Positions 1 to 30,218 of a stretch of DNA of 64,000 bases are shown piece by piece. Position numbers and translations under genes: made by a program. A model generated the notes under the pieces. The model did no database searches. It had not been told where the DNA came from and worked only from the letters and a program-made list of their open reading frames with translations. The DNA comes from Thermoanaerobaculia bacterium (lineage in GTDB: Bacteria; Acidobacteriota; Thermoanaerobaculia; UBA5066): contig JBBQDQ010000001.1 in assembly GCA_038319835.1 (NCBI GenBank), positions 19,627 through 83,626 on the forward strand, in the 5' to 3' direction. Position 1 is the stretch's first letter. The number at the start of each line of letters is the position of its first letter.

Positions 1-1274
1 AACGAGATGTGTCCGCCCGCGTCCATGTACTTTGCCGCGTTGTTCAGGAGGTTTACCACCACTTGCTCGATCCGGCCCGCGTCGGCCAGGCTCCAGAGCG
101 GCTCGGTCGGGAGCGACAACGAGAGCTCGTGCCGGCACTGCTCGATGAGAGGTCGCGCCGAGGATGCGGCCGCTGCGACGATGCTCCTGAGGTCGACGAT
201 CTCGAGCGTGAGCTGAACGCGCCCAAGAGTAACGCGGGAGACCTCCAGGAGGTCGTCGACGAGTCGCGCAAGCTGGCCGACCTGGCGCTCGATGACCTCG
301 CGCGCGTGTCGCTGGACCGTGCTCTCACCACCGGCGGCTCGCAAGAGAGCGGCCGAGGTCACGATCGGTGAAAGAGGATTGCGCAGCTCGTGAGCGAGCA
401 TGGCCAAAAACTCATCCTTGCGTCGGTGAAGGTCCGCCAGGTCCTCGTTCTGCGAAGCCACACGCTGCTCGAGGCGCACGCGCTGGCTGATGTCGCGGAT
501 ATTGCACTGGATGACTCTGGTGTGATCGACCGTGTAGATGTTGCTCACGAACTCCACCTGGGCCGCCCGACCGTCCTTGGTGCGGAGCGGCAGGTGGTCG
601 TAGCGGACGTAGCCGTGTTTCTGGAGCTCCTTGAACATGCTCTTGTTCGCTTCGATGTCCGCGAAGAGCCCGATCTCCCAGAGCTGCTTACCGAGGAGCT
701 CCTCCCTCTTGTATCCGAGCAGCTTCTCGATGAAAGGATTGGCGTCGTCGATCGCTCCATTCGGCTCATCGAGGATGAGGATCGCGTCCTCCGCCGCCTC
801 GAAAAGGCGACGATAACGGACCTCGGAGTCCTCCAGGAGCTTCAGCGCGTGATTCCTTGTTGTCATGTCCTCGATGGCGAGAAGGATCAGATCGGAATCG
901 TTACTCCCGCGGAGGAGCCTTCGCGCATTTAGCACCAGCGACCGAGGTCCCAGACTCGGGAAGTCGTGCTCGACCGTGAAATCCTCGAGGGCAGGGCTCT
1001 TAGCCAGCAGCTCCTCGAGGAGCTCCTTCAACCTGGAGATCTCCCACTGCCCGTCGCCCAGTGCGTAAATCAAACGGCCTTCGGTCTCATCGGGAGTCGT
1101 GCGAAAGGCCGTGTAGAAGGCACCGTTCGCGAACCTCACGACGAGGTTCCGGTCCAGGATGAGGAACGGCTCTCGAAGCGTCGCGATCACGTCTCTGCCG
1201 TAGTCGTGCGCTTCCTCCAGGGCTCGCTCCGCGGCCCTTCGTCCCTGGCGCAGCCCAATTTCGTCGTTCGTCAT
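1..1274 (-). CDS. PAS-domain sensor histidine kinase, partial (C-terminal HATPase end runs off the window at position 1)
   Basis: Reverse-strand translation from ATG at 1274 gives ~425 aa: two PAS-like segments, HisKA H-box 'LAHELRNPL', and HATPase N-box 'LLNNAAKYMDAGGHIS' at the window edge. Absent from the ORF track only because it has no in-window stop. Confidence 0.85.
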   Translation of the reverse strand, partial: MTNDEIGLRQGRRAAERALEEAHDYGRDVIATLREPFLILDRNLVVRFANGAFYTAFRTTPDETEGRLIYALGDGQWEISRLKELLEELLAKSPALEDFTVEHDFPSLGPRSLVLNARRLLRGSNDSDLILLAIEDMTTRNHALKLLEDSEVRYRRLFEAAEDAILILDEPNGAIDDANPFIEKLLGYKREELLGKQLWEIGLFADIEANKSMFKELQKHGYVRYDHLPLRTKDGRAAQVEFVSNIYTVDHTRVIQCNIRDISQRVRLEQRVASQNEDLADLHRRKDEFLAMLAHELRNPLSPIVTSAALLRAAGGESTVQRHAREVIERQVGQLARLVDDLLEVSRVTLGRVQLTLEIVDLRSIVAAAASSARPLIEQCRHELSLSLPTEPLWSLADAGRIEQVVVNLLNNAAKYMDAGGHIS

Positions 1275-1296
1275 TTCGAGACTACCTGAGACGAAG

Positions 1297-1324
1297 AGGA
1301 AGGGGGCCGGGTCAGCCCCCTTCC
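1297..1324 (-). terminator. Rho-independent terminator hairpin (GGGGGC-7 nt loop-GCCCCC, T-rich flank on the minus strand) after the 1335..1832 gene
   Basis: Perfect 6-bp GC stem at 1302-1320 directly downstream of the minus-strand stop at 1335. The reverse complement of the flanking 1291-1301 is TTCCTCTTCGT. Confidence 0.6.
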
Positions 1325-1334
1325 TTCCGTTCGA

Positions 1335-1832
1335 TCAGCTCCCGCGCACCCGGATCCAGGAGTCGCGCGTGGCGTCACGGACCTCTTTCCACTCGTAAAG
1401 GCTGTTTCCACGAGCTTTCGGCCACGTGCGCTCGAGCTCCGGCTCCACTTGTTCGAAGCGTTGGCCAGCCTTCGCCGACACGGCCTGCTCCCATCCATAC
1501 CGGTATGCCGGCTCGAGGTCCTCGAACTTGCGGTCCTTCCGGTAGTAGGGACGCGTGTTGTAAATATTCCGCCAATACGCGGCTTCGACCGTAGGGTCCA
1601 GCTTCTCGCCGACGGCGTGACCGGCAATCCCGCCCGCGACCGCTCCGGCAGCGGCTCCGACGACGGCGCCGACCGGCCCACCGACCGCCGCACCCACCGC
1701 GGCTCCCGCCGCCGCCCCCCCCACTGATCCCACGCCCGTGCCCACAGGGTGGGATCCGGGCTGACCGGTCATGGGATCCGGGTTCAGATTCTCTTTCACG
1801 ACGGGCCTGGGCTCTTCAAGTGTGCTTTTCAT
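1335..1832 (-). CDS. Glycine-rich hypothetical protein with a conserved aromatic-rich C-terminal domain ([12 protein letters not shown]...[18 protein letters not shown])
   Basis: ATG at 1832 is preceded by AAGGGAG with a 6-nt spacer (the track's TTG start at 1850 is less likely). Protein-like composition. The C-terminal 46 aa plus terminator are duplicated at 38815-38998. Confidence 0.65.
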
Positions 1833-1917
1833 TTTCTGCTCCCTTTCCAATTCAATGACGGCTCACGAGAGATCCGACGAGGAAGCCGCGCAGATTTCGC
1901 TCACGCGGCCGCCGCGG

Positions 1918-2145
1918 TTAGCGTTCGTGATGCGCCTTCTCGCGAATATCGCTCTTGAGCGCGTCGACCTTGTCCTTCACGAATTCGGCTGCCTTGACCG
2001 CCTCGACCTTTGCCTTTCCAACGACCTTCTTTACACGCCCATCGGCCTCCATCTTTTCGTTCCCGATGGCCTTCCCGACGGTCTGCTTGATCTTGCCGCC
2101 GAGCTCCTCGGCCGCGCCTTCTACCTTCTTCGTGATGTGGCTCAT
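1918..2145 (-). CDS. csbD: CsbD-family general stress protein
   Basis: 'MSHITKKVEGAAEELGGKIKQTVGKAIGNEKMEADGRVKKVVGKAK...' matches the CsbD KxKG repeat pattern. Internal ATG at 2145 with a weak SD chosen over the upstream TTG/ATG extension. Confidence 0.7.
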   Translation of the reverse strand: MSHITKKVEGAAEELGGKIKQTVGKAIGNEKMEADGRVKKVVGKAKVEAVKAAEFVKDKVDALKSDIREKAHHER

Positions 2146-3133
2146 GTTGAACCTGCCTTTCCCGTACTGAAGCCAGTACACGTCCATCACCGGAGCAACT
2201 GCCGTGCCGATTTGCATTTACATCCCTAACGGTGGCGGCAATGTCAGGGCGCCTTCTCGGGCGATCCCTCGCCGCGCGTTGAAGAAACTGCACCGAAACA
2301 TCCGATCTATGCCCGAGTTGCGCCGGATCGTCCTGGGTCCGGCTTTCGACGTTCGGAAGCTGCTCGCGTCGAAGCGGCCCTCCGAGACCGCTCCCAAGGT
2401 CAAGACGGAAGCGCCTGAACATCCTCGCTGGAACTGGTGCCCTTGACCCTGAGATACTCTGCGAAAAGCGTCCTGACGTTGACCTCGAGGGGAGACGTCC
2501 GTCGAGAAGCACAATCTCATCGCCCAGTGGGCCTTCGACACCCGGCCGGTGCTCCTCCGCTTCCACCTGTGGTCGGAGGACGTGGAGGTGGAGCGGGCGC
2601 AGACCGATCCGGTGTCGGCACACGCGTTCACGCCCCGCGGCATCGCCCGATGCCTCGCGATGACGTCCGCGGCGTCGCCGACGGGGTCTACCGGGTGAAC
2701 ACGAGACTTGCCGCGCACCAGGCCTCGAGCCGGATCGCCTTCACCTTCCGCCTGATGGAGCCTCTCGAAAGGGCACGCCACGTCTTCAGCCCGCTCCTCG
2801 TCCGCGCGTCGACCACACGACGCGGACGTCGTGCCGCGCGAGAAGCAGGAGACCATCCGGAAGGTGCTGGAGTGGTACCGGTCAAACCACCGGGCCTCCA
2901 TGGTCGCCCTTCGTGTAGAGACGAACCGAGAGCGCGGTTAACAGGGTCGGTCGTGGAGAAATTGTTCGCGTCGTCCATGTTGTCGACGTCGTTGCCGGTC
3001 TCGGGCGGCCGCTCGGCGAGGCGTTCGGCGATGGCGTCGAAAGCGGTCTCCGACCGGCAGGGACTCGCCGGTGAGCGCCGACTCGCGCACGTGGAGGTTC
3101 TTCGCCTCCTGCCGGATAATCTACGGTGTCTTG

Positions 3134-4456
3134 ATGAACGGTCCGTTTCCCTCCAATGTCGATGCGCTGATCTGTGGCGGAGGCCCGGGTGGCTCCACGT
3201 TCGCCTCGCTGATGGCGAAGAGTGGATACCGCACGGTCCTGTTCGAGCGCGACAAGTTCCCCCGCTTCCACATCGGCGAGTCGCTCCTCCCATGGAACGT
3301 GCCGCTCTTCGAGCGCATCGGCGTGTTGCCGAAGCTGATGGCGTCGGCGCCCCAGGTGAAATTCGGTGCGCGCTTCACCCATCAGGGATCGTCCCTCACG
3401 CGTGAGATCGTGTTCCGAAACGGCATCGACCAGGACCACCCGAGCGCGTTCCAGGTGAAACGGGCCGAGTTCGACGCGCTCCTCCTCGACCACGCCCGTG
3501 AGTCGGGGGCGGCCGTTTTCGAGGAGGCCCGCGTGACCGAGGTCGTCTTCAGCGCAGACGGCTCGAGGGCCATCGGCGTGAAAGTCCTGTTGAAGGGGGA
3601 GAGCGAGCCGCGGATGGTGGAGGCGAAGGTGGTCGTGGATGCCACCGGCCGGGACGCCCTCCTGTCCCGCCGCCTCGGCGGCCGGCGGCGCGATCCGGCT
3701 CTCGACCGCTCGGCCGCGTTCGCTCACTACGACACGTTTCGGCGTGCGGCGGGGCCCACCGGCGGCGATATCGTGATCGTCACGACGCCGGACGGCTGGT
3801 GGTGGCTGATTCCGTTTTCCGACGGCTCCGTTTCCGTCGGCATCGTCATGCCTTCCAACCGCTTCAAGGAGCGAATCGGCAGCGTCGAGCAGCTCTTCGA
3901 AGATTCGATCGCACGGACGCCGGAAGTGAGCGACCTCCTGGCAGACTCGAAGCGCACGATGGACGTGCAGGCCATCGCCGACTATTCGTACAGCACGCCC
4001 CGGATCTGCGGCGACGGCTTCTGCCTCGTCGGCGACGCGGCCTGCTTCCTCGACCCGGTCTTCTCCACCGGCGTCCTTCTCGCGATGTCATCCGCCGAGA
4101 TCGCGGCCGGAGCCGTCGACCGCGCGCTGCGCGCCAAGGGGCGCGTGGACGCGGCCGATTTCAGGGGCTTCGAGAGGACATACCGCGGAACAATCCGGCG
4201 GTTCACGCGTTTCATCCATGGCTTCTATCGCCCGCACGTGCTCGAGACTTTCTACACGACCGCGCCGAATCCGTGGATCGAGCGCGGAGTCACGACGGTC
4301 CTCGGAGGCGGCATCTTTCGCCCGACTCTCCGGGCACGGTTCTGGATCTTCGCCTTTCACGTCTGCACCGCGGCCATGTGGTTCCAGCAGCGCCTCCGGG
4401 GGCGGGGCGCCTTCGAGCGGGCGACGGGAATCGTCGAACGGGAAGGGCGGACGTGA
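3134..4456 (+). CDS. Flavin-dependent halogenase-like FAD monooxygenase
   Basis: GxGxxG ('ICGGGPGGSTFA'), 'DKFPRFHIGESLLP' (conserved Lys/GE(S) region), the diagnostic WxWxIP motif ('DGWWWLIPF') and FxxPxxSxG ('FLDPVFSTG'). Start could alternatively be GTG 3071. Confidence 0.75.
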   Translation: MNGPFPSNVDALICGGGPGGSTFASLMAKSGYRTVLFERDKFPRFHIGESLLPWNVPLFERIGVLPKLMASAPQVKFGARFTHQGSSLTREIVFRNGIDQDHPSAFQVKRAEFDALLLDHARESGAAVFEEARVTEVVFSADGSRAIGVKVLLKGESEPRMVEAKVVVDATGRDALLSRRLGGRRRDPALDRSAAFAHYDTFRRAAGPTGGDIVIVTTPDGWWWLIPFSDGSVSVGIVMPSNRFKERIGSVEQLFEDSIARTPEVSDLLADSKRTMDVQAIADYSYSTPRICGDGFCLVGDAACFLDPVFSTGVLLAMSSAEIAAGAVDRALRAKGRVDAADFRGFERTYRGTIRRFTRFIHGFYRPHVLETFYTTAPNPWIERGVTTVLGGGIFRPTLRARFWIFAFHVCTAAMWFQQRLRGRGAFERATGIVEREGRT

Positions 4457-5742
4457 GCTTCTGGCGCGGCCTGAAACTGGCCGGCTTCGCGCGCCGCCAC
4501 CTCGGCCGCATGGGCAGAGGCCGCAGAGAGGTGATGCAGCACCTCGCGAGCCCCCGCGCCGACAACCTCCCGATGCCGACCTTCGTGCAGCTCCGCGTCA
4601 CGAATCTCTGCAATCTCCGCTGCAAAATGTGTGGACAGTGGGGCGACACGGGAATCTACCGCGCGGACGCCCAGGCCGCCGTGTCCGACGGCGAGCGGGA
4701 GAGAAGCCGGATCAAGGAGCTGATCGGGCTCGACCGCCAGATGAGGCTCTCCGACTACGTCCGTCTCCTCGACGAGCTCGCGCCGTCGGCGCCGATCATC
4801 AGCCTGTTCGGCGGCGAGCCGCTGCTCTATCCCGATCTCCTGCCGCTCATCCGGGAGGTGAAGCGGCGCGGCCTGACGTGCTCGATGATCACGAGCGGCT
4901 GGCGGCTCGAGGAAATGGCGCGCGAGATCGTGGAGTCGGGTATCGACTCGATCATGGTCTCGATCGATGGGCCTCCCGACCTTCACGACCGGATCCGCGG
5001 TCAGGCGGGCACCTTCGCGCGCGCCGCGGCCGGCGTCCGGGCCGTGGCCCGCGCTCGCGCCTCGCTCGGTTCGGCAACGCCGATGCTCCTCGCGATGCTG
5101 CCGATCACCGAGCTCAACCTCGAAGACGTCGCGCCGGCTCTCGCGGCCCTCCGGGAGCTTCCCCTCGACACCGTCAACATCGGGCTCCGCTGGTTCGTCT
5201 CGAAGGACACCGGTGCGGCATACGAGAAGGTGATGTCGGAGACCTTCGGCGTCACGGGCGGCTCGTGGGAGGGGTTCGACTTCGACGGAGCGGACTTCGT
5301 CGCCACGAAGGGGCGCCAGCTGACCGAGCTCGCGAAGCTCCTGAAGGGCCTCCGCCGCCGCCGATTTCTCGACTCCGCCCGGGGACTTCCTTGGGTGTCC
5401 TTCGTGCCCGACGTGCCCGCGGACGGGGTGTCGGACTATTTCGCCGACGCGACGAAGACGTTCGGACACGACCTCTGTCCCGTGGCGTGGTATTTCGCGC
5501 AGGTGGAGCCGGACGGCGAGGTCTGCTTCTGCGGTGATTTCCCGGACTACTTCATCGGTAACGTCCGGAAGACCTCCTTCCGCGAGATCTGGACGGGGGA
5601 GCGTGCCGGCCGGTTCCGGGAAAAGCTCGCGAAAGAGCCGCTCCCGATCTGCAGCCGGTGCTGCGGGAACTACGTCTACGGAAAGTGGAAGCGGCCGCCG
5701 GCGGCCTACGCCGATGCGCCCGGATCGTCCCAGAAGCGGTAG
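4453..5742 (+). CDS. Radical SAM protein with C-terminal SPASM/twitch-like Cys cluster
   Basis: CxxxCxxC 'CNLRCKMCGQWG'; C-terminal 'CPVAWYF...CFCGDF...PICSRCCGNY'. GTG start overlaps the halogenase stop (GTGA), indicating translational coupling. Confidence 0.75.
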   Translation: MSFWRGLKLAGFARRHLGRMGRGRREVMQHLASPRADNLPMPTFVQLRVTNLCNLRCKMCGQWGDTGIYRADAQAAVSDGERERSRIKELIGLDRQMRLSDYVRLLDELAPSAPIISLFGGEPLLYPDLLPLIREVKRRGLTCSMITSGWRLEEMAREIVESGIDSIMVSIDGPPDLHDRIRGQAGTFARAAAGVRAVARARASLGSATPMLLAMLPITELNLEDVAPALAALRELPLDTVNIGLRWFVSKDTGAAYEKVMSETFGVTGGSWEGFDFDGADFVATKGRQLTELAKLLKGLRRRRFLDSARGLPWVSFVPDVPADGVSDYFADATKTFGHDLCPVAWYFAQVEPDGEVCFCGDFPDYFIGNVRKTSFREIWTGERAGRFREKLAKEPLPICSRCCGNYVYGKWKRPPAAYADAPGSSQKR

Positions 5743-6677
5743 AAGTTGAACCACTGCGTCGGGTGGGCGCGTACGACGCCTTCAAGGTCGGCTGCAACGC
5801 GGCTCATGACGCGGCGGGCGTCTTCCTCTGGCGAGAGCGAGCCGTCCGCGGTAATGGGCGCCCCCCAGACGTTGAAGTAAGACCCGTCGCGGCTGCGCAG
5901 GAAGAACCCGGGCAGGATTTCGCAGCCGCAGAAGCGGGCGAGGAGGGCCGGCGACCGGAGGAACGGCGTGGGGCGCCCGAAGTAAGGGACGAGCACCTGA
6001 TCTTCCGGGTAGGCCCGGTCGACGAGCAGCGCGACCGCGCGCCCCCCCTCGACCGCAGCGCGCACCCGGAACGCCGTGGCCATGGAGGAACCGATGTCGA
6101 TGGACTCGACGCCCAGCCGCGTCCGAAGACTCAGGCGCATCGCCTCCACGTCGGGGTCGAGCTCGGGCTGGCCCACGACGGCGGGCGTCAGCCCGTGGCC
6201 GCGCAACGTCACGGCGCCCATCTCCCAGTTTCCGACGTGTCCGGTGACGAGGAGAAATCCCCGGCCGTTCTTTCGCACGCTCGCGAGGACCGCGCGGTCC
6301 GCTTCGAACGACGTGATGCGGGGAACGAACGCGTCGCTTCGGAGGCGCCAGACGTCGATGACCGAGCGGCCGTACTCGAAGAAGAGGCACCGCCCGAGGC
6401 GTCGCGCCTCCCGGCTGGAGACACCGAGAGCGAGACGGAAGTTCTCCCGGATTCCGGCGAGCGTCTCCTTCATCACGATCACCGCGAGGCCGTTGCAGAC
6501 GAGCGAGATTCCGTGAAGGACGGCGAGAGGCAGCCAGAGCGCGCCGTAGTGAAGGCCGCGATACACGACCCGGTTCGACAGCCCGTGGCTCACCCATTTC
6601 CGGCGGCCGCGCGGGACGCTGCCGTCGGGCGCCGCTGGAATCGCCGGGCCGGCCTCGGAAGCCTCCCGCTTCAGCAT
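5706..6677 (-). CDS. Lysophospholipid/lipid A acyltransferase (LpxL/HtrB/MsbB family)
   Basis: 'LLVTGHVGNWEMG' matches the HxxxxD-type LPLAT motif of LpxL (LTGHFGNWE). Convergent with the radical SAM gene, overlapping by 37 bp. Confidence 0.65.
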   Translation of the reverse strand: MLKREASEAGPAIPAAPDGSVPRGRRKWVSHGLSNRVVYRGLHYGALWLPLAVLHGISLVCNGLAVIVMKETLAGIRENFRLALGVSSREARRLGRCLFFEYGRSVIDVWRLRSDAFVPRITSFEADRAVLASVRKNGRGFLLVTGHVGNWEMGAVTLRGHGLTPAVVGQPELDPDVEAMRLSLRTRLGVESIDIGSSMATAFRVRAAVEGGRAVALLVDRAYPEDQVLVPYFGRPTPFLRSPALLARFCGCEILPGFFLRSRDGSYFNVWGAPITADGSLSPEEDARRVMSRVAADLEGVVRAHPTQWFNFYRFWDDPGASA

Positions 6678-6774
6678 CGAGACACTTTCTCACGTTCCTG
6701 GGTCTGCGAGGTAGCCGCAGCGACCCGAAGGGCAGGTGCGGCGGAGAGCTCCCGATAGGAGCATTCTTCAGCGG

Positions 6775-9513
6775 ATGTCCCGGCGCCCCCGTATCCCGCT
6801 CCTTCTCCTCCTGGCTCTACTCGGCCCGGGTCCGCTCCTCGGCGCCCCGACGGTCTACGTTGGCACATACGTGTCGCCTGCCGACGGCGTCTTGCGCCTC
6901 TATGACGTTCGAACGCCCGCAGGGTATGACGGCGTCTCCAAAATGCCGGCCGCTCTCTTCCTGCACGGCAGAGGGGGAGGCGGGACGTCGTTTCAGACGG
7001 ATGGGTACTTCGCCGAGGCGGATGCACGCGGGTTCGTGCTCGTCTTCTGGCGGGGACGTTTCGATCCTACGATCGGAGCTCTCTCCACGCAGTACGTCGA
7101 CGGCGTGAACGGCATTCCGGACGAGACGGACGTCCTCGCGTGCCTTGCGAACGCGCTCACGTCGTTCGCGATCGATCCGGATCGCGTCCACCTCGTTGGT
7201 TTCTCGCAGGGCGGGAAGGGTGCGCTTTTGATCGGACTGAAGAACCCGGACCGCTTCGCTTCGATCGTCGACGGCGCCGGCCCGTCGGATGCCTTCGAAG
7301 GGCAGCTCTGGTCCCCGGGATTTCCCGATTACCGCGCGTCCGCGGGCGGCGATTTCGTGGGAGCGCAGGGTCCGGTGCTCGCCCGCTGGTTCGCACAGTC
7401 CCCTCGCTTCTACCTCGGCAACGCCAGGAACATCCCGCTGTACCTGGCGCACGGCACGTCGGATACCGTCGTTCCCGACTCGGTCTCGCTCTTTCCGTAC
7501 CGGAACACGCACCACATCGCCGACACGCCGGGATTCACGGACGCCCGGGGTTCCGTGGCGACTCTCTCCCAGCTCCGGCTTCAGGATTCCGGGGGTTACG
7601 TCACCCAAACCGCCTATCCGGTGGGCGTCGACCACGTGGAAGAGGTTGTGCTCGCTCCCGGACCGATCTTCGATTTCATGCTCGGCAGGGTCCGGGCGCA
7701 TCGTCCGGACAGGGTCGTGGCGACGTCTTACGATGGGGCCGACCGGAGCTACTACTGGTCGCGGCTCTCGAGAATGAACCCGCCGGACGGGACGCCTGCG
7801 GCCCTCGACGCAATCGCGGACCGTGCGGCGAACGCACTATCGATGACCGTCTCGGGAAGCCCGGACGTCGAGGTCCGCGTCGAGGACGCCGGGCTCGATC
7901 CCTCCCTGCCGCTGACGCTGCATGTCGCGGGTGGGCTCGCCCGCGTGCGCCTCACGGGAGATTTTCCGGCGGGGCTTCAGGTCCTTCGCGGCGGGATTCT
8001 CCAGAGTGAAGGCGCCTTCTACGGCCGGGCCGGCGCGGACGTCGTCTTTTCGCCCGCGGACGGCTTCCACGGGGAAGAGGTGAGAGTCGAAGCCGGGCCG
8101 CCGGGAGCGCTATCCGGGAGCGACCTTCTCGTTCCGGCGCTCGTCGACGCTCAGGGCCTTTCCGGTGCGGTCTTCAGGTCCGAGCTGACGCTGACGAACC
8201 TGTCTCCGCGGGATCTCACGGTCGAAGCGCTGCTGCTGGACGGGTCGGCCGCGACGACCTCCATCCACATGTCCTCGTTCGAAACCCTGTCGAAGTCGTC
8301 GCACGCTCTCTTCGCGTCGCTCGGCAAGCCGGGTGGAGTCGCCCCCCTCCGCCTCCGGATCGTGTCGGGGACGCCGGGCGTCCTCCTCGCGTCCGCGCGA
8401 GTCTTCAACACGGTTTCGGGCGGCGGGACGTACGGTCTGTCGTTTCCCGTCCTCTCCGCGCGTGAGTCCGTTCTGAGCGCGGGCGAAACGGTCGATCTCT
8501 TCGGGGCCTCGGACGCCCACCCGGCGCGCCTGAACGTCTCGCTCTTTGCCCCCTTCGAGGACGTGACTGCGGTTCTCGACACGTTCGACCCTCACGGCGC
8601 CCGCGCGACGAGCCGACCTCTCTCCCTCCCGGCCGGATCACGGACGCAGATGAACGACGTCCTGGCCGGCGTTCCGAATCCGGGGCGCGTTTCGCTTTCG
8701 ATCCTGACGGGACGGGCCCAGGTCTACGGAACCGCGATCTCGAATGCGTCCACGAACGATCCATTCCGAAGCCCACCGCTCGCGCGGAGCAATGTCTCGA
8801 CGGTCTGGACGGTCCCGGCCGTGGCCGCCGCTCCAGGCCGCGAGGGAGCCGTCTTCTCGAGCGACGTCTTCCTCGGCGCGCCTCCCGGCGCGCCGGATTC
8901 CGGGGTCTCGGTCGACCTCACCTTCCGATCCCGCGACGGAAGTCCTCCCGTGACCATGACGACCGCGGTCCCACGGGGAGCAACGCGGATCCTGGCGGAC
9001 GTCTTGCGCAGCGAGTTTCCGCAGTCGGTGCCGGGCGCGGGCGCGCTCGAGATTCGAAGCAGCGCGGGCGTTCAGGTTCTCGCCGTGACGCGGAGCGACT
9101 CGGACACGGGCCCCGCGTCGCAGGACGTCGCGTCGATCCGAGGGGGAGACGAGATAACCGCCGCGTCACCCTCCGCGTTTGTCGGAGTCGCCGAATTCGG
9201 GGAGGCTCGCTCGAATCTCGTCCTCGTGAACGAGGGGCCCGGCACGACCGTCGATCTCCGGATGTTGTACGAAGGGGGAGTCCTCGGAGGACACGTCACG
9301 GTCGACCTCGGTCCGGGCGAGATCAGGCAGGTCGATTCGTTCGCACGGCTCTTCGCACCGGGCTCCCGGATTCCGGTGAATTCGGCCACGCTCCTCTTGA
9401 TTCCGGCGCCGGGCGGGAGGGTCGTCGCGTCGGTCGCCCGTATCGACAACCGTACGAATGATCCAACCGGGATCAGCCCGGTTCCGATTCCGCGTGCGGC
9501 GAGCCTTCCTTAG
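6775..9513 (+). CDS. Secreted alpha/beta-hydrolase (esterase/PHB-depolymerase-like) with a large C-terminal beta-rich extension
   Basis: Signal peptide 'MSRRPRIPLLLLLALLGPGPLLGAP'; nucleophile elbow 'GFSQGG'; 'AHGTSDTVVP'. ~910 aa. Alternative GTG start at 6736. Confidence 0.65.
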   Translation: MSRRPRIPLLLLLALLGPGPLLGAPTVYVGTYVSPADGVLRLYDVRTPAGYDGVSKMPAALFLHGRGGGGTSFQTDGYFAEADARGFVLVFWRGRFDPTIGALSTQYVDGVNGIPDETDVLACLANALTSFAIDPDRVHLVGFSQGGKGALLIGLKNPDRFASIVDGAGPSDAFEGQLWSPGFPDYRASAGGDFVGAQGPVLARWFAQSPRFYLGNARNIPLYLAHGTSDTVVPDSVSLFPYRNTHHIADTPGFTDARGSVATLSQLRLQDSGGYVTQTAYPVGVDHVEEVVLAPGPIFDFMLGRVRAHRPDRVVATSYDGADRSYYWSRLSRMNPPDGTPAALDAIADRAANALSMTVSGSPDVEVRVEDAGLDPSLPLTLHVAGGLARVRLTGDFPAGLQVLRGGILQSEGAFYGRAGADVVFSPADGFHGEEVRVEAGPPGALSGSDLLVPALVDAQGLSGAVFRSELTLTNLSPRDLTVEALLLDGSAATTSIHMSSFETLSKSSHALFASLGKPGGVAPLRLRIVSGTPGVLLASARVFNTVSGGGTYGLSFPVLSARESVLSAGETVDLFGASDAHPARLNVSLFAPFEDVTAVLDTFDPHGARATSRPLSLPAGSRTQMNDVLAGVPNPGRVSLSILTGRAQVYGTAISNASTNDPFRSPPLARSNVSTVWTVPAVAAAPGREGAVFSSDVFLGAPPGAPDSGVSVDLTFRSRDGSPPVTMTTAVPRGATRILADVLRSEFPQSVPGAGALEIRSSAGVQVLAVTRSDSDTGPASQDVASIRGGDEITAASPSAFVGVAEFGEARSNLVLVNEGPGTTVDLRMLYEGGVLGGHVTVDLGPGEIRQVDSFARLFAPGSRIPVNSATLLLIPAPGGRVVASVARIDNRTNDPTGISPVPIPRAASLP

Positions 9514-14462: not shown

Positions 14463-16019
14463 CCGAGAGTCGACGCGGGCGTCGCGGAAGTCCTGGAGAC
14501 CCGCATCGCGGAGCTGGCCGCGACGTACCTTCCGCTCGCGGTCGAGATGCTCCGCGAGGCCGTCCGGATCCCAGGCGACTACGTCGACAAGCCCGCGGAC
14601 GCCGGCGGCGATCCTCTCTGCGGCCTCTCGAACCACGAGCTCCCGCGCCTCGAGTACCTGAAGAAGAAGATCGTCGAGATCCGGGCCGTGCGCCGGCCCG
14701 AGGACGCGTTCTTCGACGGCTTCGGCAACCTCGTGTGGCAGGTCGAGGATCCCGACGACGGGATCGCGCCCGCGAAGAAGAAAGTCGTCTACATCGACGG
14801 GCACACCGACACCGTCCGCGCGCTGAGGGACCAGTGGCGGGCGAAGGTCGGCGGCGTCGACTGCTACGACGGCCTCCTCGACCGGTCGAAGGTCAACCGG
14901 GAGTTCCTCCTCAAGGAGCTCGGCTGGGTGCCTCCCGAGTCCGAGTGGGAGCACCTCGTCTTCGGCCGCGGCGCGGCCGACCAGCTCGGCGGCGTCGTCG
15001 CGGCGGCGATCGCGACGAAAATCCTCGTCGAGCTCACGCGCGAAGGCTCGCTCAAGGGCGCGATCGTCCGCTCGTACGCGACCGTCTGCGAGGAGGACAA
15101 CGACGGCGCCGGGCCGATGTACCTCAATCGCGAGATCTTCCCGACCGCGAAGCCGGAGCTGATTCCCGACGTCGTCATCCTCACGGACGGCACCGGCTGC
15201 AACAGGCGCGGCGCCCTCGGGATCTACCGCGGCCAGCGGGGCCGGATGCAGATCGAGGTCTCCGTGACGGGTAAGTCCTGCCACGGGTCGATGCCGTGGG
15301 AGGGGCTGAACCCGTTCGAGTACGGGGCGGCGATCGTGCGCGAGGCCGCGGAGGCCTACGAGAGGCGCGACGGCTTCCTCGACGACCCGTTCCTCGGCCA
15401 CGGCACGCGCACCGCGTCGTGGGCGCGCCTCGACACGCCGAGCGACTGCGCTGTCCCCGAGCGCCTCGCCTTCCGCTTCGACCGCCGCCTGACGATCGGC
15501 GAGACGCCCGAGCGGGCGCTCGAGGACGTCGAGCGCCTCCCCGCCGTCGCCGCAGCGCGCCGGGCCGGCCTCGTGGTCGACGTCTCGGTGCCCGTCTACC
15601 CGAATGCGAGCTGGAAGGGCTACGTCCTCGGCAACCCGCAGGTCTACCTCGGCTGGGTCACGCCCGAGGATCACCCCGCGATCCGCGCCGCCGTCGCGAC
15701 GTACCGCTCCGTCGTGAGCCCGCACGTGGACGGGGAGATCGGCACGGGCGGCGTCCTCACGAAAGAGCCGCGCGTCGAGCGCTGGGTGTTCTCCACGGAC
15801 GGCGTCGGCTTCCCGGTCCCGAAGGACGCGAGCGTCCCGGGTGCGGCCGGCAAGGGCTGGGTCGTGGGCGAGCGCTACAAGCACCCCGCGATGTTCGGGT
15901 TCGGGCCGGGCATCGAGCAGAACACGCACAAGATCGGCGAGTGCCTCGACGCGCGCGAGATGCAGCACTGCGCCGCGTTCCTGGCGCGCTTCCCGAGCGT
16001 CTTCGCCGCGCCGCGCTGA
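14463..16019 (+). CDS. ygeY: M20-family peptidase/amidohydrolase (YgeY-like)
   Basis: ATG at 14463 preceded by GGAGG with a 5-nt spacer. M20 dimetallo-hydrolase fold motifs ('IDGHTDTV', 'VFGRGAADQLGG', 'ATVCEEDNDGAG'). First gene of the syntenic cluster. Confidence 0.7.
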   Translation, partial: PRVDAGVAEVLETRIAELAATYLPLAVEMLREAVRIPGDYVDKPADAGGDPLCGLSNHELPRLEYLKKKIVEIRAVRRPEDAFFDGFGNLVWQVEDPDDGIAPAKKKVVYIDGHTDTVRALRDQWRAKVGGVDCYDGLLDRSKVNREFLLKELGWVPPESEWEHLVFGRGAADQLGGVVAAAIATKILVELTREGSLKGAIVRSYATVCEEDNDGAGPMYLNREIFPTAKPELIPDVVILTDGTGCNRRGALGIYRGQRGRMQIEVSVTGKSCHGSMPWEGLNPFEYGAAIVREAAEAYERRDGFLDDPFLGHGTRTASWARLDTPSDCAVPERLAFRFDRRLTIGETPERALEDVERLPAVAAARRAGLVVDVSVPVYPNASWKGYVLGNPQVYLGWVTPEDHPAIRAAVATYRSVVSPHVDGEIGTGGVLTKEPRVERWVFSTDGVGFPVPKDASVPGAAGKGWVVGERYKHPAMFGFGPGIEQNTHKIGECLDAREMQHCAAFLARFPSVFAAPR

Positions 16020-16023
16020 CGCC

Positions 16024-19000
16024 ATGGAAAGAGCCTTCCGACCCCTTCCGCTCGAGCGTCTCGCGCGGTGGGTGTTCGGGGATCTCGCGTCCGCGGACTC
16101 GGTGCTCGGGATTCCGAGGGCGAACTTCGCCGTGCCCGAGGCGCGGCTCGCGTCGCGCGTACTCGGCCGGCGCCTCGCCGCTCCGCTCGGCCTCGCGGCG
16201 GGGCCGCACACGCAGCTCGCGCAGAACATCGTCGCGGGCTGGCTGTGCGGCGCGCGTTTCGTCGAGCTGAAGACGGTCCAGGTCCTCGACGAGATCGACG
16301 TCGGCCGCCCGTGCATCGACTCGGCCGACGAGACGTTCAACTGCGAGTGGTCGCAGGAGCTCCGGCTCGAACAGTCTTTCGGCGAGTACCTCAAGGCGTG
16401 GGTGCTGATTCACGCCCTCGCCGCCCGGATGGGGCTGCCGGAGCCGGGAGCGCTCTTCGCGATGAGCGTGGGTTACGACCTCGCCGGGATCAGGAGCCCG
16501 CGCGTCGCGGGGTTCGTCTCGCGGATGCGCGACGCGGGCGCCGCCCTGCCCGCCGCCGTGGACGAGGTCGCGAAGGCGTGGCCCGGCGTCCGCGACGTCC
16601 CGATCCCGGCGCGCCTCTCCGACCACGTGACGCTCTCGACGATGCACGGCTGCCCGCCGGCGGAGATCGAGAAGATCGCCCGGCACCTCCTCGAGGACGT
16701 CGGCGTCCACACCTGGATCAAGCTCAACCCGACGCTCCTCGGCCCCGAGCGCGTCCGGGGGCTCCTGAACGGGGCGCTCGGCTACGCGATCGAAGTCCCG
16801 GACGAGGCGTTCGCGCACGACCCGCGCCTTTCGGACGCGCTCCCGGTCCTCGAGCGGCTCGCCGAAGCGGCGCGCGCGCGGGGCCTCGGGTTCGGCGTCA
16901 AGCTCTCGAATACGCTCGAAGTCGTGAACCGCCGGCCCGTCCTCCCGCCGAAGGAGAAGACGGCGTACCTCTCGGGCCGCGCGCTCCACCCGCTCACGCT
17001 GAGCCTCGCGCGCCTCGTCGACGACGAGCTCGAGGGGCGGGTGCCGATCTCGTTCTGCGGCGGCGCCGACGCCTGGAACTTCGCCGACCTCGTCGCGGAC
17101 GGTCTGACGCCCGTCACCGTCTGCACGGACCTCCTCAAGCCGGGCGGCTACGCGCGTCTCTCACAGTACCTCGCGAACCTTGGCGCGGCGATGTCGGCCG
17201 CGGGGGCGGCGGACCTCGACGCCTTCGTGGCCGCGACGTCGGGAGGCCGCGGGCGCCGCTGGAACCTCGCGCGGCACGCCGGGCGCGTCGCCGCCGACGG
17301 CCGCTACGCGCGCCGCGCGCGAGAGCTCGCCTTTAAGGGCAGCCGCCCGCTCGGGCCGTTCGACTGCGTCGCGGCCCCTTGCGTGGAAGCCTGCCCCGCA
17401 CATCAGGACGTCCCTGGCTACCTCCGGCTCGTCGCGCAGGGCCGCGACGACGAGGCGCTGAACGTCATCCGCCGGTCGAACGCGTTGCCCGGCGTGACGG
17501 GCAGCATCTGCGACCGCCCGTGCACGGAGCGCTGCGTCCGCAACTTTTACGACGCGCCCGTCGGGATCCGCGAAGTGAAGCGCTTCGCGGTGGAGCACGG
17601 CAGGACGGCTGCGGAGGCGCCGGCTGCTCCCGTGGGCGCCGCGGTGGCGATCGTCGGCGCCGGCCCCGCCGGGATCTCGGCCGCCCTCGAGCTCGCACGC
17701 CTGGGCTTCGCCGTCGAGATCTTCGAGGCGACGAGCCGCGCGGGCGGGATGGCGGGCGGCGCCGTGCCGCGTGACCGGCTCGACGACGCGAAGCTCAGGG
17801 GCGACCTCGAGAGGCTCGCGGCGCTCGGCGTGAAGATCCATTTCAAGACCGCGGTCGGAACGGACGTCCCGCTCGCGGACCTCTCCGCGCGCTTCGTCCA
17901 CGTCTTTCTCGGGGTCGGTGCCGGGAAGGGGAGGCGCCTCGGCATCCCCGGCGAAAGCGCCGAGGGCGTCGTCGACGCGCTGGAGCTCCTGAGCGGCCTG
18001 CGCGAGGGCGCGGCGCGGCCGCTCGGCAGGCGCGTCCTCGTCGTCGGAGGCGGTAACTCCGCTCTCGACGGCGCGCGCTCGGCCCGCCGCCTCGCGAAGG
18101 GCGGCGAGGTCTCCCTCGTCTACCGCAGGACGCGCGCGGAGATGCCCGCCGATCCGGGCGAGGTGAAGGACGCGCTCGCCGAGGGCGTCCTCTTCCGCGA
18201 GCTCCTCGCGCCGTTGCGCGTCGTCGTCGAGGGCGGGCGCGTCGTGGGTCTCGCGTGCGCGCCGATGACCCTCGGCGCTGCCGACGCCTCCGGCCGCCCG
18301 CGGCCGGTTCCGACCGGTGGGAGCGAGGTCGTCCTTCCGGCCGACACGATCGTCACCGCGATCGGACAGGAGCCCGCCACCGTGCTCCTCGGAGGAACGC
18401 TCTCCGCGAAGGAAGACGGGACGCTCGCCGCACGCGCCGGAACGGGCGAGATGCCGCAGCCCGGGCTCTTCACGGGCGGCGACGCCGTCCGCGGCCCCTC
18501 TTCGATCATCGAGGCCGTGGCGGACGGGTTCGCCGCGGCGCGCGAGATCGCCCGGCGGCACGGCATCGTCGTCGCCCCCGAGCCGCGGCCTCCGGCGCGC
18601 GCCGACGGCGCGGATCTCATGGCGAAGAAGGCGAGCCTCGTCGGGCCCGAGCCGGTGCCCGAGCTCCCCGTGGAGGAGCGCGGGGGCTTCGACGAAGTCC
18701 TCCGAAGCCTGGGCGCCGAGGCCGCCCGGCGGGAAGCGAGCCGCTGCCTCGACTGCGACGAGGCGTGCGGCCTCTGCGTCACCGTCTGCCCGAACCGGGC
18801 CAACCTGTCGTATGCGGTCCCGCCGCTGGCGCTCGAGCTCCCGTCGTTCGTCGTCGAGGCGGGGCGGGCGGTCCCGTGCGGGACGACGACGTTCTCCGTC
18901 GCGCAGGGCGTGCAGATCGTCAACGTCGGCGACGCCTGCAACGCGTGCGGAAACTGCACGACGTTCTGCCCGGCTGCCGGCGCGCCGTACCGCGACAAGC

Positions 19001-19317
19001 CGACGTTCTGGATCGACGCCGAGGGCTTCGCCGAGGCGGAGGGCGACGCGTTCCGGATGACGCGCGAAGGCGGCACGACGGCGATCGATGCGCGCGTCGG
19101 CGGCCGGCGCCACCGCCTCGAGCGCCGAGGCGACGCCGCCGAATACGTCTCCGAGTCGCTGCGCGCCACGTTCGACGCGTCGCGCTGGACGCTCGCCGAG
19201 GCCTGCCTCGAAGGGGCGCCCGAGGAAGGGACGTCGCTCGACCTCTCGACGTGCGCCCTGCTGATCGCGCTTCTTCATGCCGCCCCCGCGCTTCCTCCCG
19301 GACGGGAGGCTGCATGA
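16024..19317 (+). CDS. ygfK: YgfK-like multi-domain Fe-S flavoprotein (DHODH/PreA-like TIM barrel + GltD-like FAD/NADPH + 2x[4Fe-4S] ferredoxin)
   Basis: 1097 aa. Cys clusters 'CVAAPCVEACPAH', 'CDRPCTERCVRN', 'CLDCDEACGLCVTVCP', 'CNACGNCTTFCP'. Dinucleotide motifs 'VAIVGAGPAGISAA' and 'VLVVGGGNSALDGA'. Confidence 0.75.
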   Translation: MERAFRPLPLERLARWVFGDLASADSVLGIPRANFAVPEARLASRVLGRRLAAPLGLAAGPHTQLAQNIVAGWLCGARFVELKTVQVLDEIDVGRPCIDSADETFNCEWSQELRLEQSFGEYLKAWVLIHALAARMGLPEPGALFAMSVGYDLAGIRSPRVAGFVSRMRDAGAALPAAVDEVAKAWPGVRDVPIPARLSDHVTLSTMHGCPPAEIEKIARHLLEDVGVHTWIKLNPTLLGPERVRGLLNGALGYAIEVPDEAFAHDPRLSDALPVLERLAEAARARGLGFGVKLSNTLEVVNRRPVLPPKEKTAYLSGRALHPLTLSLARLVDDELEGRVPISFCGGADAWNFADLVADGLTPVTVCTDLLKPGGYARLSQYLANLGAAMSAAGAADLDAFVAATSGGRGRRWNLARHAGRVAADGRYARRARELAFKGSRPLGPFDCVAAPCVEACPAHQDVPGYLRLVAQGRDDEALNVIRRSNALPGVTGSICDRPCTERCVRNFYDAPVGIREVKRFAVEHGRTAAEAPAAPVGAAVAIVGAGPAGISAALELARLGFAVEIFEATSRAGGMAGGAVPRDRLDDAKLRGDLERLAALGVKIHFKTAVGTDVPLADLSARFVHVFLGVGAGKGRRLGIPGESAEGVVDALELLSGLREGAARPLGRRVLVVGGGNSALDGARSARRLAKGGEVSLVYRRTRAEMPADPGEVKDALAEGVLFRELLAPLRVVVEGGRVVGLACAPMTLGAADASGRPRPVPTGGSEVVLPADTIVTAIGQEPATVLLGGTLSAKEDGTLAARAGTGEMPQPGLFTGGDAVRGPSSIIEAVADGFAAAREIARRHGIVVAPEPRPPARADGADLMAKKASLVGPEPVPELPVEERGGFDEVLRSLGAEAARREASRCLDCDEACGLCVTVCPNRANLSYAVPPLALELPSFVVEAGRAVPCGTTTFSVAQGVQIVNVGDACNACGNCTTFCPAAGAPYRDKPTFWIDAEGFAEAEGDAFRMTREGGTTAIDARVGGRRHRLERRGDAAEYVSESLRATFDASRWTLAEACLEGAPEEGTSLDLSTCALLIALLHAAPALPPGREAA

Positions 19318-25664: not shown

Positions 25665-26839
25665 GCGCCATCCTCCTCGAGAACCCGCTCGCGAAACCCG
25701 GTCAGCGCTGGCCGGCGCCGGACCCGGCCATCCGCGCCTTCCACCGGCGGCTGACGGGCTATCGCCCGACGCCGCTCCTCGACGCCCCCGGCCTTGCGGC
25801 GCGCTACGGCGTGAAGCGCGTCCTCGTGAAGGCGGAGTCGCAGCGCATGGGCCTCCCGAGCTTCAAGATCCTCGGCGCGTCGTGGGCGACGTATCGCGCG
25901 CTCTGCGACCGCCTCGGCTCCGAGCCCGGGCCATGGGCGGACGTCGACGAGCTCGCCCGGCGCGTCGCGTCCCTCAGGCCTTTCTCGCTCGCGGCGGCGA
26001 CGGACGGCAACCACGGACGCGCCGTCGCGCACGTGGCGCGCCTCCTCGGCTTCTCGTGCCGCATCTTCGTCCCCGAAGGGACGTCGCCCGCGCGCATCGG
26101 CGCGATCGAGGGTGAGGGCGCGGAGGTCGTCGTCGTGGACGGCGACTACGACGACGCGGTCGAGCGCTCGGCGGAGGAAGCCGCACCGGGGTGTCTCGTC
26201 ATCTCCGACACGTCGTGGCCCGGGTTCGAGACGATCCCCGGGAGCGTCATGGACGGCTACACGACGATCTTCCTGGAGATCGAGGAGGCGCTCGCCGCCG
26301 CGGGCGCTCCCACGCCGGACGTCGCAATCGTCCCGGTGGGCGTCGGCGCGCTCATGGCGGCCGCCGTCACATTCTTCCGGAGCCGCCCGTGGACGGGAGC
26401 GCTCGTCGCGATCGAGCCCGACGACGCGAACTGCCTGCAGGTCTCCGCGCAGGCCGGGCGGATGACGGCAGTTCCGGGGCCGCATCGCTCGATCATGGTC
26501 GGGCTCAACTGCGGTCTCCCGTCGTCCGTGGCGTGGCCGCGCCTGGCCGCCGGCGTCGACTGGATGGTCGGGATCGGCAGCGACCGGGCGCGCCAGGGCA
26601 TGCGCGAGCTCGCGGAGGCGGGCGTCGTCGGCGGGGAGACCGGCGCCTCGCCGCTCGGCGCGCTCTGCGCGCTCCACGGCGACGTCTCCACGGCGGCCTT
26701 CCGCGCGCGCGGCCTCCTCGGAGAGGACCGGACGGTCCTCCTCGTCGTCACGGAAGGCGCGACGGACCGCGAGCACTACCTTTCCATCGTGGGCCGGACT
26801 CCCGAAGAGGTCGGGGCGTCCGCGGTGCGGAGCCTCTGA
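25661..26839 (+). CDS. ygeX: Diaminopropionate ammonia-lyase (YgeX/DpaL-like PLP enzyme)
   Basis: GTGA overlap with the upstream stop. 'ESQRMGLPSFKILGASW' PLP-lysine motif typical of DAP ammonia-lyase. Confidence 0.75.
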   Translation: MSAILLENPLAKPGQRWPAPDPAIRAFHRRLTGYRPTPLLDAPGLAARYGVKRVLVKAESQRMGLPSFKILGASWATYRALCDRLGSEPGPWADVDELARRVASLRPFSLAAATDGNHGRAVAHVARLLGFSCRIFVPEGTSPARIGAIEGEGAEVVVVDGDYDDAVERSAEEAAPGCLVISDTSWPGFETIPGSVMDGYTTIFLEIEEALAAAGAPTPDVAIVPVGVGALMAAAVTFFRSRPWTGALVAIEPDDANCLQVSAQAGRMTAVPGPHRSIMVGLNCGLPSSVAWPRLAAGVDWMVGIGSDRARQGMRELAEAGVVGGETGASPLGALCALHGDVSTAAFRARGLLGEDRTVLLVVTEGATDREHYLSIVGRTPEEVGASAVRSL

Positions 26840-26850
26840 GAGGAGGGCAC

Positions 26851-29421: not shown

Positions 29422-30218
29422 CGCCGGAAGACGGCGGCCTCGTCGTCGTGCGCGGCGCGGGCGACCTCGGCACCGGGTGCATCGTGCGCCTCGTGAAGTC
29501 CGGGTTCCGGGTGCTCGCGCTCGAACTGCCGAACCCGAGAGCCGTCCGCCGGACCGTGAGCCTGTGCGAGGCGGTACACGACGGTGTGGCGGCCGTCGAG
29601 GGCGTGCGCGGAATCCTCCATTCCTCCGTCCCGGCCGCGTGGGCGCGCGACGAGGTGCCCGTCGTCGTCGACCCGGAGTGCACGAGCCTCGCGCCTCTCG
29701 CACCGCTCGCGCTCGTGGACGCGATCATGGCGAAGCGGAACCTCGGCACGCGGATCGACATGGCCTCGGCCGTCGTCGGGCTCGGCCCGGGGTTCGTCGC
29801 CGGACGCGACGTCCATGCCGTCGTCGAGACGAACCGCGGACACGACCTCGGGCGCGTGATCTACGCCGGCGCCACGCAGGCGAACACGGGGGCACCCGGC
29901 CTCGTCGGCGGGCACGGCGGGGAGCGCGTGCTCCACGCCCCGGCGGGCGGCGTCGTCGAAGCGGTGAAGGCGATCGGAGACCGGGTCGAGGCAGGAGACG
30001 CCGTGCTGACGGTGGATGGAACGCCGGTGCGCGCGGCGATCGCGGGAGTCGTCCGCGGGCTCCTGCGCCCGGGCTCCCGGGTCCACGCAGGTATGAAGGT
30101 GGGCGACGTGGACCCCCGGTGCGTGAGGGAGAACTGCTTCACGATCTCCGACAAGGCCCGCGCCGTCGCGGGCGGAGTCCTCGAGGCGATCCTGACGCTC
30201 GCGCCCGCGGGACGCTAG
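29418..30218 (+). CDS. yqeB: YqeB/EF2563-family selenium-dependent molybdenum hydroxylase system accessory protein
   Basis: ATGA overlap with the xdhD stop. N-terminal 'VVVRGAGDLGTGCIVRL' Rossmann-like segment and overall YqeB-like architecture. 266 aa. Confidence 0.6.
   Translation: MTPEDGGLVVVRGAGDLGTGCIVRLVKSGFRVLALELPNPRAVRRTVSLCEAVHDGVAAVEGVRGILHSSVPAAWARDEVPVVVDPECTSLAPLAPLALVDAIMAKRNLGTRIDMASAVVGLGPGFVAGRDVHAVVETNRGHDLGRVIYAGATQANTGAPGLVGGHGGERVLHAPAGGVVEAVKAIGDRVEAGDAVLTVDGTPVRAAIAGVVRGLLRPGSRVHAGMKVGDVDPRCVRENCFTISDKARAVAGGVLEAILTLAPAGR

Follow-up and report, generated by a model that had tools for sequence, protein, structure and literature searches.

A conserved gene block of Thermoanaerobaculia joins a halogenase homologue, a radical-SAM enzyme and an LpxL-family acyltransferase: a candidate lipid-tailoring cassette

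Which substrate, if any, is shared by a flavin-dependent halogenase (FDH) homologue, a radical S-adenosylmethionine enzyme (rSAM) and an LpxL-family acyltransferase (LPLAT) that are encoded side by side in an acidobacterial genome? The three genes lie at positions 3134-6677 of a 64,000-nucleotide (nt) stretch of DNA from a Thermoanaerobaculia bacterium (GenBank assembly GCA_038319835.1, contig JBBQDQ010000001.1, positions 19,627 to 83,626), which was analysed as a whole and is referred to here as the window. An initial annotation, made from the sequence alone, had leaned to a peptide or protein substrate for FDH and rSAM and had offered lipid or aryl tailoring as a secondary suggestion. Our results point to the second of these: we give a probability of about 0.5 to the trio being a small cassette that tailors a lipid or aryl-lipid and has the membrane-anchored LPLAT at its centre. 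Literature searches returned no description of an FDH and rSAM pair, in line with the initial annotation, nor was any described module joining a halogenase, a radical-SAM enzyme and an acyltransferase found in them.

All three genes are intact (Table 1) and lie in a GC-rich window (~69%). Translational coupling of FDH and rSAM had been proposed, and the arrangement seen is the one expected of it: the TGA stop of FDH (4454-4456) overlaps the GTG start of rSAM (4453-4455), and an NTGA overlap is present at 13/13 FDH-carrying loci, namely the window and those of 12 other species. The GTG start is real, because the N-terminal sequence that follows it, MSFxRGLxLAGFARRHLGRM, is conserved in 21/21 aligned homologues; the overlap with the FDH stop is therefore real as well. 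The rSAM and LPLAT genes are convergent, as first described, and their 3′ ends share 37 nt (5706-5742). Upstream of FDH, a GGATAAT box is found 14 nt 5′ of the ATG; when the sequences upstream of FDH are aligned, GATA.T occurs without variation in 12/12 loci that carry the gene. A GTG start comes ~7 nt after the box in most relatives, and this suggests that the FDH-rSAM transcript is leaderless or has a short leader. A consensus promoter scan found no complete sigma-70 promoter upstream of FDH, just the conserved -10-like box.

Table 1. Features of the three-gene block and their positions in the window.
Feature	Position	Strand	Remarks
Flavin-dependent halogenase (FDH) homologue, PltA/CmlS/CndH type	3134..4456	+	440 aa
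Radical-SAM enzyme (rSAM)	4453..5742	+	429 aa, GTG start
LpxL-family acyltransferase (LPLAT)	5706..6677	-	323 aa
GTGA overlap, FDH stop / rSAM start	4453..4456	+	read from sequence
-10-like box GGATAAT, putative promoter (FDH-rSAM transcript with a short leader or none)	3114..3120	+	conserved upstream alignment

A scan of one genome per species places rSAM in at least 229 acidobacterial species. The loci of the 80 most query-similar of these 229 were analysed by tblastn and clustering of open reading frames (ORFs); it should be noted that the fraction carrying FDH is lower in the whole rSAM family than in these 80 loci. The homologues found for the block are all from Acidobacteriota, class Thermoanaerobaculia, and occur in three arrangements. 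In the majority (arrangement A), cysK on the minus strand is followed by an M64 peptidase gene and rSAM on the plus strand, LPLAT convergent with rSAM, and a gene for a B12-binding radical-SAM enzyme (B12-rSAM) on the plus strand. Arrangement B, in which FDH leads into rSAM and rSAM is convergent with LPLAT, is that of the window and of the 12 species mentioned above, whose rSAM is at least 78% identical to that of the window. In arrangement C, found at two loci (L043 and L077), genes for a thiolase, a 3-hydroxyacyl-CoA dehydrogenase and an enoyl-CoA hydratase precede rSAM, the start of which again overlaps the preceding stop by 4 nt; LPLAT is again convergent with rSAM, and stands head-to-head with a gene for a second FDH (FDH2) that is 41-42% identical to the FDH of the window. 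An HMG-CoA-lyase-like gene comes after FDH2 at L043:6162-13491 and at its L077 equivalent.

LPLAT is convergent with rSAM at a distance of 400 nt or less in 53/72 informative loci and within 8 kb in 67/72, and FDH is directly upstream of rSAM in only 11 of the 75 upstream-informative loci; the usual partner of rSAM is LPLAT, not FDH. In ~54 of the 80 loci LPLAT is head-to-head with an HpnR-like B12-rSAM, and the two stay together even where they are 3-8 kb away from rSAM. The B12-rSAM of arrangement A (for example L002:12201-13646, plus strand) best matches the hopanoid C-3 methylase HpnR over its full length (241 bits, cut-off 650) and is, by this match, a relative of lipid-type C-methylases. 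FDH and LPLAT are also found together without rSAM: on a metagenomic contig (L093:1823-4040), homologues of the two (80% identity for FDH, 87% for LPLAT) are directly convergent, with ~26 nt and no rSAM between them.

The initial annotation had asked whether FDH and rSAM are co-located in other genomes. In the 12 other species, which are soil Acidobacteriota, the pair is kept together with LPLAT, and the genes flanking the trio are unrelated between almost all FDH-carrying species; a tblastx comparison of the window's flanks with every locus gave just high-GC noise past the closest relative. Since the gene arrangement recurs across species, it is not due to chance: the trio is a conserved block in one subclade, and the rSAM-LPLAT pair is older and wider.

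More distant relatives of FDH connect it to LPLAT in a different setting, that of aryl polyene (APE) biosynthesis. In another member of Thermoanaerobaculia (GCA_039919545.1, L092:70-5279), a 68%-identical FDH lies between a 4HBT thioesterase gene and an LPLAT paralogue, the latter only 33% identical to the LPLAT of the window, and next to these are oppositely oriented genes for a ketosynthase (KS) and a KS resembling a chain-length factor (CLF). This order is an APE-like signature. When metagenomes were scanned with the FDH alignment, KS/CLF pairs were found to adjoin 11/80 relatives (35-50% identity) and LpxL-family genes 9/80, many of the contigs being short; a homologue of the window rSAM is present in 0/80 of these loci. 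One of the FDH loci (L161) has the order LPLAT-KS-ACP-KS/CLF-GT2-FDH-FtsX/ABC, the last being an exporter and ACP denoting acyl carrier protein, and fits the layout of xanthomonadin-type clusters, where a halogenase and GT2 flank a KS-CLF pair (PMC3691225). An ApeD-type LPLAT and the ApeJ glycosyltransferase have been proposed to fix the aryl polyene on a lipid anchor, with halogenation tailoring the head group (PMC8253772). Xanthomonadin/flexirubin-type clusters use the same halogenase family, with relatives at 35-68% identity adjoining KS/CLF, ACP, GT2, LPLAT, thioesterase and exporter genes, and share with the window the adjacency of FDH and LPLAT. The window differs from them in lacking, throughout its 64 kb, genes for KS/CLF, ACP, a dehydratase, a reductase and export, and in having rSAM inserted between FDH and LPLAT. 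The locus is not an APE cluster; of the components of such a cluster, only the halogenase and LPLAT are present.

Taken together, each recurrent association has LPLAT as its hub: rSAM accompanies it in arrangements A, B and C, the HpnR-like methylase in arrangement A, and FDH in arrangements B and C and on L093; in APE-type clusters, FDH relatives accompany its paralogue. For this reason, a lipid cassette built around LPLAT is the most economical reading of the locus. The gene anatomy, catalytic motifs, conserved coupling and neighbourhood statistics on which it draws were observed directly. The repeated FDH-LPLAT adjacency, the KS/CLF contexts and the pairing of LPLAT with an HpnR-like enzyme all favour what the initial annotation had placed second, lipid or aryl tailoring.

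LPLAT itself matches PF03279 (103 bits), as expected of the LpxL-type acyltransferase first described. It has a predicted N-terminal hydrophobic (membrane) helix at about residues 46-69 and the dyad H147-x4-E152 (HVGNWE), and HxGNWE is kept in 66/66 orthologues. Its scores remain below those of the named subfamilies: 68.7 bits against a cut-off of 273 for the lipid A acyltransferase equivalog PRK06553, the best such model, 43 against 297.8 for the LpxL/LpxP subfamily model TIGR02207, and 66.6 against 209 for the PatA model. PatA is also its best match in the PDB (34 bits). The scan of window ORFs turned up no lpx genes. LPLAT thus has the LpxL fold and catalytic dyad, without the score of an LpxL or PatA equivalog.

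The halogenase homologue was examined with the profile suggested for it, Pfam Trp_halogenase (PF04820), and scores 87.9 bits, above the cut-off of 21. GGGPGG, the GxGxxG of the N-terminal FAD-binding fold, is found at residues 15-20, KFGARF at 76, WWWLIP at 222-227 and FLDPVFSTG at 305-313. Both signature motifs reported in the initial annotation, WxWxIP (W222, W224, I226 and P227) and FxxPxxSxG (F305, P308, S311 and G313), are present and invariant in 19 homologues, the FDH2 subfamily included. WxWxIP holds the substrate off the flavin and is the hallmark that distinguishes halogenases from monooxygenases. A missing catalytic Lys had been named beforehand as a reason to doubt that the protein is an FDH; Lys76 (QVKFGARF) is there, lines up with the KKFGA Lys of PltA, Mpy16 and ChlB4, and is likewise invariant in the 19 homologues.

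Among the ten best PDB sequence matches of FDH, nine are named halogenases, the exception being an unnamed flavoprotein (3nix). The highest scores are those of 8zop (235 bits), PltA (225), Mpy16 (214), ChlB4 (214), CmlS (194) and CndH (193); a literature search found no paper on 8zop, the best structural relative. The carrier-protein-dependent pyrrole and phenol halogenases PltA (5dbj), Mpy16 (5buk), CmlS (3i3l) and CndH (3e1t) are similar to FDH over its full length (190-235 bits) and share with it GxGxxG, the catalytic Lys of the KFGA motif, WxWxIP and FxxPxxSxG. Unlike PltA-type halogenases, the FDH of the window has no carrier protein, non-ribosomal peptide synthetase (NRPS) or polyketide synthase (PKS) partner, and its orthologues are widespread as stand-alone genes. 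It is also below the CmlS equivalog NF033113, with 216 bits against a cut-off of 900 and a match covering profile positions 5-358 of 570. By every sequence test FDH would be classed as a flavin-dependent halogenase, yet it is the equivalog of no named one.

An enzyme of this fold could also be one that does not halogenate, namely an FAD-dependent oxygenase or reductase that works on a lipid or quinone alongside rSAM, in the manner of geranylgeranyl reductases and Ubi hydroxylases. We consider this quite improbable. FDH scores 126 bits against the geranylgeranyl-reductase superfamily model, short of the cut-off of 158.8, and matches Ubi-type models weakly, while Lys76, WxWxIP and FxxPxxSxG do not vary within the family and all but one of the ten best PDB matches are named halogenases. 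More in keeping with a non-halogenating role, profile scans of the ORFs neighbouring the trio found no flavin reductase or halide-related gene, and the wide occurrence and high conservation of the orthologues are not usual for halogenases of secondary metabolism. Generic flavin reductases commonly serve halogenases.

The radical-SAM assignment of the second gene is upheld, and the SPASM-like Cys cluster ascribed to its C-terminus is present in reduced form. The protein scores 80.5 bits against Radical_SAM (PF04055, cut-off 29.5) and contains the CX3CX2C motif as CNLRCKMC (residues 53-60), with C53, C57 and C60 invariant. Its C-terminal domain matches SPASM (PF13186) above the cut-off, at 51.3 bits. 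Here C342, C360, C400, C403 and C404 are invariant and C358 is variable, giving the auxiliary pattern CX17C...CX2CC, the invariant parts of which are C342-X12-G355-X4-C360 and C400-X2-C403-C404. In comparison with the seven-Cys motif of SPASM enzymes with two auxiliary clusters (CX9-15GX4C ... CX2CX5CX3C ... C), the CX5CX3C part and the last Cys are missing. We take the CX17C...CX2C spacing to resemble that of the single-cluster Twitch domain of BtrN, and the domain is consistent with a reduced SPASM that binds one Twitch-like auxiliary cluster. rSAM reaches the cut-off of no NCBIfam model. Its identity to the Twitch/SPASM small-molecule enzymes BlsE, DesII and BtrN is 17-20%; unlike these, it has an N-terminal basic helix (~40 residues before the core), an insertion behind CX3CX2C and, with C404, a fifth invariant Cys, and peptide maturases score equally well against it. 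A role in anti-phage defence was rejected, the match of rSAM to pVip being through the generic radical-SAM core alone.

It is on this protein that the peptide explanation depends, in which a SPASM-type rSAM would modify or cross-link a peptide or protein and an FDH-fold flavoenzyme would halogenate or hydroxylate an aromatic residue. Precedents exist in the QhpD/QhpG pair of quinohemoprotein amine dehydrogenase maturation and in halogenated RiPPs (peptides made by the ribosome and modified after translation). The Pfam SPASM match agrees with such a role, as do the structural similarity of rSAM to SkfB, PqqE, SuiB, CteB and anSME and the gene for a secreted M64 peptidase just upstream of rSAM in most relatives. 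The auxiliary Cys set is nonetheless reduced, only ~40 residues precede the rSAM core, and no Pfam match to a RiPP recognition element (RRE) or PqqD-like domain, fused or stand-alone, was found in rSAM or nearby. When ORFs of 20-110 aa lying up to 1.5 kb from either end of the trio were clustered across 12 loci, no shared small-ORF family that could serve as a RiPP precursor emerged, just low-complexity, Arg-rich off-frame artefacts. The ORFs scanned in the window include no genes for an NRPS, a transporter, an RRE, a protease or Qhp subunits. The profile scans and the small-ORF clustering thus agree with the statement of the initial annotation that no precursor peptide, carrier protein or transporter is evident.

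A described pairing of a SPASM-type radical-SAM enzyme with a flavoenzyme is that of QhpD with the FAD monooxygenase QhpG, which belongs to the same broad flavoenzyme fold family as FDH. The QhpG model is the second-best NCBIfam match of FDH (158 bits, cut-off 240), and LodB gives 122 bits; in the PDB search, the QhpG structure 7ctq scores 35 bits as compared to 235 for the best halogenase match. In contrast to the QhpD/QhpG system, FDH has the halogenase motifs, and genes for QhpA, B, C, E or F do not occur nearby among the scanned ORFs. The analogy was rejected on these grounds.

Radical-SAM enzymes are also known to modify lipids, namely Tes/GDGT-MAS, Gms, Mss, Cds, HpnH, HpnJ and HpnP/HpnR; with its auxiliary-cluster domain and its place beside lipid enzymes, rSAM has features in common with these, and Tes and Gms are SPASM enzymes that act on lipids (PMC13459092). 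This 2026 review nowhere uses the word 'acyltransferase' in its main text (PMC13459092). The step from a SPASM domain to a peptide substrate, which the initial annotation had been inclined to take, is not a safe one. With no RRE, no conserved precursor, a SPASM domain reduced to a Twitch-like form, recurring partners that are lipid-type enzymes and LPLAT as the constant partner of rSAM, we regard a peptide or protein substrate as very improbable.

The wider rSAM family gives some indication of the chemistry involved. At 50% clustering, the tight family forms one cluster plus fragments; outside it are ~330 representatives (E < 1e-30) with 30-41% identity. Several of these distant relatives bear an N-terminal GT2 glycosyltransferase fusion, and one is fused to a CDP-alcohol phosphatidyltransferase. 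A distant relative at L090 is part of a polar-head-group-like operon with genes for a HAD protein, a nucleotidyltransferase, an aminotransferase, a GFO/IDH/MocA oxidoreductase, a CDP-OH transferase, the fusion protein and LPG_synthase_TM. Another adjoins GT2/Glyco_transf_21 and methyltransferase genes, and a third has a methyltransferase gene directly upstream. The locus L087 is a large glycosyl/B12-rSAM cluster that encodes two GT2-rSAM fusions, at least four B12-rSAM, a PqqD-bearing radical-SAM enzyme and a Frankia_peptide gene, and one further locus gave an uninformative context. The fusions and contexts of the distant relatives suggest glycan or head-group chemistry, and we counted them for the lipid reading. 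The relatives fused to GT2 or the CDP-alcohol phosphatidyltransferase are P0259, P0281, P0312, P0329 and P0315 (32-41% identity; loci L087 and L090).

A function of rSAM as a membrane-spanning lipid synthase of the Mss/Tes type was set aside and kept at low probability, given that its family forms one narrow 50%-identity cluster and that Mss homologues are reported to be absent from Acidobacteria (PMC13159169). Because the family appears confined to that single cluster, rSAM is not expected in the acidobacterial groups that make iso-diabolic acid, and a link to the acidobacterial route to branched or membrane-spanning lipids is unlikely.

On the reading that we favour, the trio tailors a lipid. 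LPLAT would move an acyl, possibly aryl-acyl, chain onto a glyco- or phospholipid acceptor. FDH is a genuine enzyme of halogenase type, and its clade is the one that modifies aryl head groups in aryl-polyene lipids of xanthomonadin type; it would halogenate a phenolic, electron-rich moiety of the lipid or of the acyl donor. rSAM would activate a C-H bond of the same molecule by radical chemistry, the most plausible sites being the acyl chain and a head group of sugar or polyol type. rSAM and LPLAT are the conserved core in Thermoanaerobaculia, and FDH in this clade and the HpnR-like B12 methylase in most others would be alternative accessories. We infer here that the substrate is shared and is a lipid, that halogenation takes place and that rSAM catalyses a reaction of this kind.

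Several observations weigh against such a cassette. Orthologues of FDH with 62-70% identity stand alone in unrelated contexts in other phyla. Profile scans of ORFs and tblastn for KS found no type II PKS, ACP or exporter genes in the 64-kb window, so an aryl-polyene substrate must come from elsewhere in the genome or is not made. The gene upstream of rSAM varies between clades, being that of an M64 peptidase, FDH or an enoyl-CoA hydratase, and the operon partner of rSAM may therefore be incidental. The housekeeping gene cysK is in the same block, so inherited synteny among related genomes could explain much of arrangement A. rSAM and LPLAT are convergent and therefore not co-transcribed. Finally, the fold comparison of rSAM ranks SkfB, PqqE and SuiB about equal to BlsE, and for that reason it cannot separate small-molecule from peptide-modifying enzymes.

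Several of these points are also what one would expect if the three genes shared no pathway at all. LPLAT would then be an ordinary lipid A acyltransferase, rSAM an unrelated housekeeping enzyme or maturase that ends the upstream operon, and FDH an insertion in one clade, with gene order resulting from compaction and common descent. The changing upstream neighbour of rSAM, the presence of cysK, the convergent orientation and the stand-alone FDH orthologues are all compatible with this, as is the high conservation of the three proteins (at least 68-70% identity), which is like that of housekeeping genes. It is less easily reconciled with the persistence of the trio and its 4-nt overlap despite scrambled flanks in nearly every FDH-carrying species, or with two FDH subfamilies, only 41% identical, that are each found beside the same LPLAT. 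Furthermore, FDH adjoins a paralogous LPLAT in PKS-type clusters, and the LPLAT of the window falls below the LpxL equivalog cut-offs, with no lpx genes nearby. On balance, we judge the absence of a shared pathway to be rather unlikely and retain the lipid-tailoring cassette as our preferred reading.

The remainder of the window offers little that relates to the trio. The other ORFs scanned are ordinary chromosomal genes (sensor kinase, esterase, glutathione peroxidase, fasciclin, extracytoplasmic function sigma factor, M20 peptidase, dihydropyrimidine-/xanthine-dehydrogenase-like proteins and Ser/Thr kinases), and there are no Rfam or tRNA matches in the window. Divergent from LPLAT and 58 nt away, a gene at 6736-9513 (plus strand) encodes a 925-aa protein with an N-terminal alpha/beta-hydrolase domain of esterase or polyhydroxyalkanoate depolymerase-like type; it is beside the trio in no relative and is therefore probably unrelated to it. 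Positions 1-4000 have a GC content of 0.63-0.65 as compared to the window mean of ~0.69, and neither Pfam nor NCBIfam gave a match to the ORFs at 1901-2623 and 2218-2901 (both minus strand), which also lack counterparts in related loci. Large Fe-S/flavin/molybdopterin oxidoreductases of the dihydropyrimidine-dehydrogenase and xanthine-dehydrogenase types are encoded at 15841-19317, 26191-29421, 30215-32455 and 51112-53256, which suggests a region for purine or pyrimidine catabolism. At 48426-51023 and 61093-63696 (both minus strand) lie the genes of two paralogous Ser/Thr protein kinases of ~865 aa with long C-terminal TPR arrays.

What would be new at this locus is the addition of an uncharacterised radical-SAM enzyme to halogenase/LPLAT lipid tailoring, which is itself known in kind. 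A bolder proposal, which we put forward only tentatively, is that rSAM and LPLAT define a new membrane-lipid tailoring system of Thermoanaerobaculia with an interchangeable accessory, either FDH or an HpnR-like B12 C-methylase, and that the window holds the first halogenase/radical-SAM partnership acting on a lipid, yielding a new halogenated, radical-modified lipid. If the lipid-tailoring reading is correct, a radical-SAM step would join halogenated aryl/acyl lipid chemistry, which to our knowledge has so far been known only from xanthomonadin/flexirubin-type pigments, and the three genes would offer a compact target for heterologous expression from an uncultured lineage. It would also provide a first functional context for an rSAM family that is present in at least 229 acidobacterial species. 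A common shortcut is corrected in any case: a SPASM-type domain alone does not imply a peptide substrate.

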